Positions 24,001 through 27,000 of a DNA stretch of 38,480 bases are shown here, one piece after another. Position 1 is the stretch's first letter; each line of letters opens with the position of its first letter. The stretch is from the IMG/VR virus record IMGVR_UViG_2718218396_000012; one strand, given 5' to 3'. The position numbers are program-made. The DNA is from a virus. Taxonomy: Duplodnaviria; Heunggongvirae; Uroviricota; Caudoviricetes.

Positions 24001-27000
24001 CCGCATTCGTCTCGGTGCGCGAAGGATATAACCTGAATCGGTTCGTGCTGCCTTTGCGGTTTCCTGATTCAGCATTACTCCTCCTGCTGTAATTCCTCCT
24101 CATCATCCGCACCTGCTTCGGTCACCCGCAGGGCTATCTGATCGCGCAGATCATCAATAATGGACTGAACACGGCTCACAGCGGCAGGCTGCAGACCACA
24201 GTCACGTTCCAGAATATCCGGTAATGTCTCCAGCACCTGCACGACCGCTTTTGCCCAGATGGCAAACTCCCGTCTGACTGAACCGCCCCGGGTTTCCTGG
24301 AGAGTGTTTTATCTGTGAACTCAGGCTGCCAGATCATCGTTTCCGATGGAAGCATAATAAGCTTTTTCTGCTTCTGCCGGAGGAGTATGGCCCAGCCTTC
24401 CCAGCAATCGTCGATTGTTATACCAGTCCACCCACGTTAGTGTGGCCAGTTCCACTTCTGCACGGTTTTTCCAGCTCTTACGGTGTATTACCTCCGCTTT
24501 GTAAAGACCATTGATGCTCTCAGCCATCGCGTTGTCATACGAGTCGCCTGTACTCCCTGTTGATGCCAGTAATCCGGCTTCTTTTAGTCGCTCCGTATAG
24601 GCCAGTGACACATACTGAGAGCCTTTATCGCTGTGATGGATGGTGCCAGACGGACGACGGGCCCACAACGCCTGCTCCAGCGCATCCAGCACGAATGTCG
24701 TTTCCATAGACGATGAGACCCGCCACCCCACGATGTATCCGGCAAACACATCAATGATAAACGCCACATAGACGAAGCCCTGCCATGTGCTGACGTAAGT
24801 AAAATCAGCCACCCACAGCTGGTCAGGTCGTTCTGCCACGAACTGACGGTTTACGCGGTCGCCTGCGGCAACGGCTTTCCGGCTGATGGTCGTACGGACC
24901 TTTTTACCCCGGAGAACACCGGCAAGTCCCATAACCGCCATGAGACGTGCCACTGTACATCTGGCCACCCTGATTCCTTCCCGTAACAACTGACGCCAGA
25001 CTTTACGCACACCGTACACCTGATGATTTTCATCGTATACGCGCTGTATCTCTCTCTTCAGCCAGTCGTCGTGCTGCGCACGGGCACTGCGTTTATCCGG
25101 ATGATGTCGCTGTTGCTGACAATGGTAATACGTTGACGGGGCAATATGCAGTTCGCTGCATACCGGTCCGACCCCGTACTGCTCACGCAGCTTATCCAGC
25201 AGTGGCATCATTTTTTCCAGAGGCGGTCGAACTCCGCCTTCGCAAAATAAGCGGAAGCCTGGCGAAGGATATCGTTACTGCGGCGCAGTTCACGATTTTC
25301 ACGTTCCAGCTCTTTCAGACGCTGACGTTCAGCGCTGGTGAGCCCACCATCACCGCCCCCGGTATCCCGCTCATGCTGGCGAACCCAGACACGCAGAGTC
25401 TCCGGCGTACAGCCAATCTTTGGGGCAATGGAACAAATTGCCGCCCACTGTGAGTCATATTCATCCTGACTTTCCAGAACCATACGAATCGCCCGCTGAC
25501 GGACTTCGGGGGAAAAACGAGTATTTTTAGTCATCCTGTTTACCTCTTTCTCAGGGAGTTTAGTCTCCAGGATTTCCGGGGCGGTTCAGACATCACTGGC
25601 CGGAATGAGTTGTGCCGTTTCCTGTTCGAACTTAAGACGCTCACGTTCAGACTGATACCAGGCTTTGCGTTCATGTGGATCCATTTCGCCCTCAGCAACC
25701 GGCGGTGGTAACCCCATAAATTCAGTCAGAATATCGGTCAACCGGTATAGCTTGAGTTTGTCATGTCCACCAGCGGGACGAATGTTTTTCAGTCTTGCCA
25801 CGACAGTCTGGCGGTGCAGACCAGATAAAGCCGCCAGTTGATTAATATTCAGCACCAGGTTTTTCAACTCATGATCCATATTTCCTCCGGAGAGCTTTAA
25901 ACATGCATCGTGCGAACAACTTTAAGAAAACGCGTTCGATGTCGAACAAAAAACACTCAATTCGACATACAAAAAACAAATAACCATTAATAATCAATAA
26001 GATGCAAAGATGATGGTGGCCGATAAAAATGCAAAAACTAGCCTTTTTCCGCGACGCTCCCGCCCCGTGGCAGGCCACCCCACCGGGAGGAGCCGTCAGC
26101 CTGAAAGCCATGACGAACGTCTGATACAGCCCTTGCATGAATGGCATCGGGATAATCCAGAAAGGAATAGCATCGACCCACAAGAATCTGTGTGAGTGTC
26201 CTGTTTCTTCCACCCCCGCACAGGACTGGCGAGCATGAGGGACAAACCCGCGAATCATTAGCGCGGTAAAAACCCGGTGTGCATCGTTTTTGATTATTCC
26301 CGCACACTCGCGCAGAAGGAGTTCCCCGTCGGGCTACGGTCATGGTTAATGCGGGAATACAGCGACGATACAGCGCATGATGTGTCAGGCTTGAATACCT
26401 TTATCCGTTAAAAGGGATATCAGTTAAGTTATCCCGTGTAGGGTATAAGCCATTATCAAAGCCACTCTGTAGGGAGTGGCTTTTGTAATGGCAATAAAAA
26501 AGCCCCGCGAATGCGAGGCTAAATCCAGGTATTTTTAATGACTGGCTCTTATCTCAACGCAGCCCCTTACCGCGCGCCAGATGCTCAATATCAAGCATCA
26601 GCAATGAGATGTTTAACCATGATTCACTCCAGAAGTGAGCACCACCCTGTCTACAGAGCCAGATGTGAAGGATGATGAGTAAAATTATCGCTATCATCGA
26701 AGGCATTGCGTCCTGATGTATTCCTGAAGCGTTCTCAGTGCTGTTTGGTCGCGGATAATTCCGTCCCGGATACCGAGAACGTTTCGTCCAGCAACTGGAG
26801 AGAGTTCGACGGTGGCATCATTGCCCATGCCGGAGGCGCTGGAGGTTTCGTCTGAGGATGGCACAGGGCATTTTCCTTTGACGAACACCCGACCACCATT
26901 ATCAAGCTTGCGCCGAAGAGCATCATTTTTAGCTTTCGCATCAGCTAACTCCTTCGTGTATTTAGCATCGAGTGCATCAGCAGCACGCTGGCGCTGCTGC

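Follow-up and report, generated by a model that had tools for sequence, protein, structure and literature searches.

Insertion of an IS629 element into the putative small-terminase gene of an Sp3/CP-933K prophage in Escherichia coli O157:H7

The IMG/VR virus record IMGVR_UViG_2718218396_000012 (Duplodnaviria; Heunggongvirae; Uroviricota; Caudoviricetes) is a stretch of 38,480 nucleotides, referred to below as the window, in which an insertion sequence (IS) interrupts a gene located directly upstream of the large-terminase gene (terL). The whole window is base-for-base identical to positions 921155-959634 of Escherichia coli O157:H7 strain 7784 (NZ_CP018247.1). The prophage that hosts the element is the lambdoid Sp3/CP-933K, which lies between ybhC and ybhB and carries nleB2, nleC and nleH1-1. 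The interrupted gene, which is assigned below to the small terminase subunit (terS), is present as two fragments separated by the IS, and the features of the locus are collected in Table 1.

The ends of the element, TGAACCGCCCCGG.../...CCGGGGCGGTTCA, form inverted repeats that, in a scripted boundary check, agree at 13 of 13 positions at the tips (TGAACCGCCCCGG) and at 22 of 26 positions overall. Members of the IS3 family are characterized by a length of approximately 1.2-1.5 kb and imperfect repeats of the form 5'-TG...CA-3', and both are found in this element at 1310 bp. The product of orfB matches the NCBIfam equivalog model transpos_IS3 with 316 bits (cutoff 160), and its DDE core is supported at the domain level by this match and by that to Pfam rve. 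A -1 slip on the A run would join orfA and orfB into a 404-residue OrfAB, in agreement with the two-piece, 1214-nt coding sequence given by the Prokaryotic Genome Annotation Pipeline (PGAP). The reading frames are observed, and the slip as the mechanism of fusion is inferred from knowledge of the IS3 family together with the 'programmed frameshift' note of PGAP. Judged from its sequence, the copy carries everything that an active IS3 element needs, which includes the terminal repeats, orfA, the DDE core of orfB, the A6 slip site and the ALIL pseudoknot.

Table 1. Features of the IS-interrupted locus and of related loci; positions are those of the window unless another record is named
Feature	Position	Strand	Remarks
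Small-terminase (DUF1441) gene, 5' fragment, codons 1-97 (MDHELKNL...IPASDV)	25589-25879	-	predicted winged helix-turn-helix (HTH) DNA-binding part
Small-terminase gene, 3' fragment, codons 98-163 and stop (RREFAIW...ELQQEE*)	24075-24275	-	no translation from the native start now
IS629/IS1203 (IS3 family), 1310 bp	24279-25588	-	transposase genes co-oriented with the terminase operon
Left target-site duplication copy, GAC (+ strand; GTC on the gene strand)	24276-24278		single copy in Sakai and other empty-site genomes
Right target-site duplication copy, GAC	25589-25591		codon V97 (GTC) of the 5' fragment
Right inverted repeat (IRR), transposase-distal end, TGAACCGCCCCGGGTTTCCTGGAGAG	24279-24304		13/13 at the tip and 22/26 overall against the other end
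Left inverted repeat (IRL), transposase-proximal end	25563-25588		outermost TGA (minus strand) is the stop of the truncated terS product
orfA, 108 aa	25208-25534	-	HTH_Tnp_1, PF01527, E=2.4e-12
orfB, 296 aa as an ATG-started reading frame	24321-25211	-	HTH_21; DDE/rve integrase core, rve E=9.3e-28
A6 slippery run (TGG AAA AAA TGA), predicted orfA-orfB -1 frameshift point	25211-25216	-	orfA stop embedded in the run
ALIL frameshift-stimulating pseudoknot	25137-25253	-	Rfam RF01497 over the full length of the model, 121.5 bits (gathering score 50), E=2.7e-31
Large terminase, gpA type, 700 aa	21973-24075	-	GpA_ATPase E=9e-72; GpA_nuclease E=1.9e-85
cosN-like sequence GGGCGGGAGCGTCGCGG	26049-26065	-	matches the left end of lambda at 13/17; terS ATG 186 nt downstream (lambda: 190 nt)
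Split portal gene	20255-20590 and 20712-21836		older defect shared with Sakai Sp3
Integrase gene (int)	37414-38480		older defect shared with Sakai Sp3
Truncated bet	33652-34323		older defect shared with Sakai Sp3
IS629-family element of O145:H28 RM13514	3001-4510 of L002; 19997-21526 of L008

The closest relatives of the element leave little doubt about its name. It is 100% identical over 686 and 387 bp to an internally deleted copy in prophage Sp4 of strain Sakai, which is annotated 'IS629 transposase' and 'IS1203 family', and many plasmid copies annotated 'IS3-like element IS1203 family transposase' are 100% identical to it. PGAP uses the latter name at the locus in strain 7784, where it records a programmed frameshift and the ALIL pseudoknot between two pseudogene fragments of DUF1441. 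IS1203 is regarded as an isoform of IS629, and subtype I is its equivalent in O157 (Rump et al. 2011, PMC3271280). The element is therefore identified as IS629 (IS1203 isoform) of the IS3 family, as the initial annotation had proposed when it described an IS629-like IS3-family element with matching terminal inverted repeats.

The IS is flanked by the trinucleotide GAC, a repeat that taken alone has a probability of 1/64 at random. Removal of the IS and one GAC in silico gave an 800-bp query for the empty site, which found a full-length match of 100% identity in all 25 O157 genomes among the matches listed; the best match reached 99% or more in 537 genomes, and a full-length copy of some allele was present in 1360. 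The window aligns with Sakai Sp3 in two blocks that overlap by exactly GAC, and outside the IS the two differ by 7 substitutions and one 1-bp indel in 37.2 kb. Since the empty-site genomes hold a single GAC and the Sakai blocks overlap by exactly these three bases, the flanking GAC is a true target-site duplication, as had been supposed. Target duplications of IS629 are reported to be 3-4 bp (Rump et al. 2011, PMC3271280), 3 bp being the usual length. Among 42 distinct full IS629 copies in IMG/VR, 23 were flanked by a 3-bp duplication and one by a 4-bp duplication, and 18 had none.

Deletion of the IS and one GAC restores an unbroken minus-strand reading frame of 492 nt and 163 codons, and this part of the initial annotation is reproduced together with the TAATG in which the TAA stop of terS overlaps the ATG of the large-terminase gene (GAGTAATGCTG). 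In the interrupted allele the TGA of the IS terminus directly follows the V97 codon, and the truncated product has exactly 97 residues and no IS-encoded tail.

The initial annotation had further taken the interrupted gene for that of the small terminase subunit, and homologues with this label were readily found. The reconstructed protein matches Pfam DUF1441 (PF07278) with 150.3 bits (cutoff 35.1; E=4.6e-44) over residues 10-149 and profile positions 1-146 of 147, and DUF1441 is also the label used by PGAP. It matches PHROG 141, 'terminase small subunit', with E=2.7e-77. Nu1 of phage lambda is a member of PHROG 57 (E=1.3e-76), and the profiles match reciprocally, the reconstructed protein finding PHROG 57 with E=8e-9 and Nu1 finding PHROG 141 with E=5.6e-8. 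The intact counterpart in Sakai, ECs_0824 (492 bp), lies in a region with the same sequence as the window and is annotated 'phage terminase small subunit'. Homologues stand at or near the head of the records of the isolated phages mEp460, mEp043, mEp213, LLS and yong2, with starts at nt 13-130, and occur also in Gifsy-2 and Stx2a phages; most of them are annotated terS. An AlphaFold2 (AF2) model of moderate quality (pLDDT 78, pTM 0.38), built from the 99%-identical protein P0001, has a strand-helix-helix-strand-strand-helix arrangement at residues 9-55, which resembles a winged HTH, followed by long helices. Upstream of the gene, the cosN-like pattern has one match in the window and none in 100 shuffles, the pattern having been picked post hoc, and GGGCGGGAGCGTCGCGG is probably the cosN of the Sp3 prophage.

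Two PHROG families of unknown function match parts of the same gene. PHROG 5710 matches only residues 1-98 (window 25586-25879) and PHROG 6039 only residues 109-163, a region that corresponds to a GTG-started open reading frame at 24075-24242. Both look like families that were built from fragments of IS-split copies of the small-terminase gene. Just downstream of the lysis cassette, between it and the cos/terminase region, there is a strong terminator-like hairpin on the minus strand (26501-26520; 8-bp stem with 6 GC pairs, followed by a T-run).

The distribution of the IS-bearing allele is narrow. Queries that joined 200 bp of flank to 200 bp of the IS were prepared for each side, and both junctions were found at 100% identity only in the complete genomes of strains 7784, CV261, Z1835 and Z1836. 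A fifth strain, NZRM4169, keeps the right junction and lacks the sequence equivalent to window positions 19024-24278. Exact junction scans of IMG/VR gave no matches. The four genomes were sequenced independently and come from the UK and France, and the derivative comes from New Zealand. Because both junctions are limited to these four complete genomes and one deletion derivative, in a prophage that is otherwise nearly identical to that of Sakai, the insertion is taken to be derived and recent. The five IS-bearing strains appear to form one clade, judging from the prophage single-nucleotide polymorphisms (SNPs) that they share; against this, NZRM4169 differs at one of these SNPs.

Elements related to IS629 are present in the same region of other prophages. 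About 20 O145:H28 genomes have an IS629-family element at the identical left junction, in the same orientation and in the same terS gene (equivalent to window 24276-24279). This element differs from the IS of the window at 71 of 1310 positions (5.4%) and is frameshifted, and its flank contains, in the 85 bp next to the junction, two O145-specific SNPs that are absent from the window. It resides in a different prophage, one that adjoins yjjG, whereas O157 Sp3 adjoins ybhC. The other end of the O145:H28 element borders directly on a DUF551 gene close to the integrase, so that nothing is left of the early and lysis region, and no right junction or duplication matching those of the window was found for it. 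The O145:H28 insertion is considered independent of that in O157 because of its divergent and frameshifted IS, its own flank SNPs, its other chromosomal site and the loss of the early and lysis region. In O157:H7 strain ECP19-198 an independent IS1203 (L003 3155-4465) lies 45 bp downstream in the same gene (window 24230-24233), in the same orientation and with a 4-bp CCAG duplication. In CEC96047 an IS629-family copy with 57 mismatches to the IS of the window is located in terL (L006 2390-3700; window 23033-23850), with an 818-bp deletion and no duplication. The insertions in the window, O145:H28, ECP19-198 and CEC96047 are all co-oriented with the late operon.

The function of the interrupted gene and the origin of the interrupted allele can each be read in other ways. 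It is conceivable, if improbable, that the gene encodes a DUF1441 HTH protein with some other role, such as a regulator or an excisionase-like DNA binder, in which case no packaging function was lost with it. Several searches weigh against the terminase label and on the side of this alternative. BLASTP detected no similarity between the reconstructed protein and lambda Nu1; an hhalign comparison with Nu1 was weak and confined to the N-terminal HTH (residues 9-53 with Nu1 2-48; E=0.004, probability 8%); and a Foldseek search of the AF2 model against the PDB had no match at E<0.1, the top partial matches being MerR-type winged-HTH proteins. Pfam Phage_Nu1 gave no match to the reconstructed protein, for which the Pfam scan returned only DUF1441 and a sub-threshold HTH_30, and a phmmer search of PDB sequences found nothing. 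Lambda Nu1 itself weakly matches excisionase and MerR-like PHROGs. To our knowledge, there is no biochemistry for the DUF1441 family. What tells against another role is the position of the gene, whose stop codon runs into the start of a gpA-type large-terminase gene. Its distance from the cosN-like sequence on its upstream side, 186 nt, recalls the arrangement of nu1 in lambda. In the isolated lambdoid phages it is the first gene and there is no other candidate for the small terminase at that place, and profile matches to the Nu1 PHROG run in both directions, at E of about 1e-8. The protein is thus formally a member of DUF1441 that appears Nu1-like by position and falls outside the Pfam Nu1 family, and it is concluded that the interrupted gene probably encodes the small terminase of a lambda-type cos packaging system, a label that rests on synteny and remote homology.

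The allele itself might be ancestral, with the empty alleles having arisen by precise excision of IS629 together with one duplication copy, a process promoted in O157 by the IS-excision enhancer IEE. Excision of IS629 that depends on IEE has been described (PMC9943667), and precise excision would leave exactly the single-GAC sequence that is seen in the empty alleles. The IS is found, however, in only 5 of 63 genomes that share a nonsense allele in gpJ (described below), and in no other genome with a near-identical allele, that of Sakai among them, were both junctions found, so that dozens of independent excisions would be needed; in addition, the 100% identity of the IS to other O157 copies fits a young insertion. 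Ancestry of the IS-bearing allele is accordingly very improbable. Little more can be said for a homologous recombination that brought in the IS from a related prophage in which it already occupied this position, for example that of O145:H28. The shared left junction and orientation in the O145:H28 genomes would be expected of such a donor, but the sequence divergence and frameshift of that element, its two flank SNPs and the lack of a matching right junction or duplication speak against it, and both flanks in the window agree fully with the O157 empty allele. This origin is given as little weight as excision. Misplacement of an IS copy during assembly would be the least probable explanation of all. 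With about 15 copies of the IS629 family and many near-identical prophages, O157 genomes are easily misassembled, yet identical junctions recur in four independently sequenced complete genomes and in the New Zealand derivative, and a misjoin would not yield a clean 3-bp duplication.

Recent insertion of IS629 into terS, which these comparisons favor, affected a prophage that was already defective. The Sp3 prophages of Sakai and 7784 have in common a frameshifted integrase, a truncated bet and a split portal gene, and they lack the repressor, cro, O and P genes. In Sakai, no circularization, replication or packaging of Sp3 was found, and the terminase was classed as intact (Asadulghani et al. 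2009, PMC2669165). The initial annotation had spoken of a clean, recent event in a previously intact packaging gene. The recent date and the prior integrity of terS are upheld; the prophage around it was already unable to excise, replicate or package. A later defect concerns gpJ (6236-9649, minus strand), which encodes the tail-tip protein J and has a nonsense codon at residue 622 (7786-7784) that results from one substitution relative to Sakai. This nonsense allele was found in 63 complete genomes, among them all five IS-bearing strains, and because these five are nested within the 63 the IS would have been inserted after the gpJ mutation. In NZRM4169 a 5255-bp deletion extends from the IS end across the 3' part of terS, terL, the portal gene and part of the protease/capsid fusion; it is adjacent to the IS and is derived from the insertion seen in the window. 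The likely order of events is therefore the shared old defects, the gpJ nonsense mutation (63 genomes), IS629 (5 genomes) and the NZRM4169 deletion (1 genome).

The truncated bet of Sp3 is fused next to ninE, and no immunity or replication genes lie between the defect loci. Cargo genes are intact in the decayed prophage: those of the type III effectors nleH1-1, nleC and nleB2 at the tail-fibre end (window 1-3742) and the lipid A deacylase gene lpxR in the nin/Q region (30827-31786).

Elements of the IS3 family move by copy-out/paste-in through a circular intermediate. Based on this family knowledge, an IS629 copy in a sublineage of O157:H7 would have transposed by way of such a circle into the Sp3/CP-933K small-terminase gene at codon 97, duplicating GAC. 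The insertion leaves a 97-residue N-terminal fragment of the protein and removes the C-terminal 66 residues, and it may also uncouple the start of the large-terminase gene from upstream translation, so the terminase holoenzyme of Sp3 would presumably be lost. Because the prophage was already immobile, the insertion most likely represents neutral decay. It has in turn seeded further decay in the form of the 5.3-kb IS-adjacent deletion in NZRM4169. Taken as a whole, insertion of IS629 into terS of Sp3 with duplication of GAC and loss of the terminase, most likely as neutral decay, is very probably the right account of the locus. Nothing in the sequence contradicts it, and the steps that are inferred are transposition, loss of the terminase and polarity on terL.

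The agreement between O145:H28 and O157 in the position of the insertion raises the question of target preference. An O145 genome has about 30-40 places with IS629-family elements in about 5 Mb, which by a rough estimate puts the chance of the same position and strand at a preset site at about 1e-5. Given this low chance, the coincidence suggests a local target preference of IS629. For some members of the IS3 family, sequences that resemble the inverted repeat are known to attract insertion. Such a sequence was rejected as the basis of a hotspot at this site, since the best 26-mer agrees at 15 of 26 positions, a value equalled by 6% of random windows. The 8-mer GTCTCCAG, which also occurs within the IS629 inverted repeat, is present at the insertion point in ECP19-198 and is not significant. 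A logo was made of the 23 IMG/VR sites with 3-bp duplications (the contigs with IS629 ends are loci L009-L128). It has a weak symmetric signal, C(-2)/G(+4), with C two bases before the duplication at 14 of 23 sites and G two bases after it at 13 of 23, and the site in the window fits half of this signal. In earlier work no target consensus was found for IS629 (Rump et al. 2011, PMC3271280). The Salmonella remnant ZC-S1_prp (L134 2950-3315), which is Gifsy-2-like and encodes a protein that aligns to residues 1-97 only, was considered as a third break at codon 97. It was rejected by DNA alignment with Gifsy-2, which places the break 11-12 bp downstream and without an IS; there a deletion fuses the DUF1441 gene near a lom fragment. 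That GAC at codon 97 of the DUF1441 small-terminase gene is a true hotspot for insertion of the IS629 family is a serious possibility, held at slightly under an even chance. If it is one, IS629 has a target preference (for sequence, DNA structure or transcription) that escaped earlier surveys of 21-47 sites, and typing by IS presence cannot always assume identity by descent.

At this locus the steps of prophage decay can be followed cleanly and in order. The insertion could serve to mark a small bovine-associated subclade of O157 with members in the UK, France and New Zealand, and the O145:H28 insertion at the identical nucleotide counsels caution in IS-based typing. No other driver of small structural variation in O157 is as well known as IS629, and the event has little significance beyond bookkeeping; the IS-bearing locus is already annotated in RefSeq for strain 7784, and the event is routine and already known.

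Four known systems are useful for comparison. The interrupted gene resembles that of lambda gpNu1 in lying about 190 nt downstream of cosN and in overlapping a gpA-type large-terminase gene, and the proteins resemble each other in an N-terminal HTH that aligns to Nu1 residues 2-48 and in the cross-matches of their PHROG profiles. They differ in the lack of BLASTP similarity, in Pfam family (DUF1441 versus Phage_Nu1) and in length (163 versus 181 residues). A precedent for the interruption is nu1 of Sakai Sp4, which contains ISEc8 (Asadulghani et al. 2009, PMC2669165). There too an IS lies in the small-terminase gene directly upstream of that of the large terminase in a lambdoid O157 prophage, and a packaging defect was scored. 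The Sp4 case involves the IS66 rather than the IS3 family and another prophage, and Sp4, unlike Sp3, is still able to excise and be packaged. Since ISEc8 belongs to a different family and the small-terminase gene is a different one, Sp4 was rejected as a repeat of the same insertion and serves as a precedent only.

The element shares with the IS629/IS1203 copies of O157:H7, of which Sakai has 23, its length of 1310 bp, its sequence, the -1 frameshift between orfA and orfB, the ALIL pseudoknot and the 3-bp duplication, and like 62% of IS629 copies it is located in a prophage. The sole difference is the location, as Sp3 is absent from the 47 IS629 sites catalogued in four reference O157 genomes, and the copy in the window is private to a small O157 sublineage. 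Deletions adjacent to IS629 in enterohaemorrhagic E. coli are promoted by IEE, according to the summary of Kusumoto et al. 2011 in PMC9943667. Retention of one IS end with loss of the DNA on its other side, as in those deletions, is seen in NZRM4169 (5255 bp), CEC96047 (818 bp, in terL) and O145:H28 (early and lysis region), whereas the copy in the window is undeleted and has both flanks intact.

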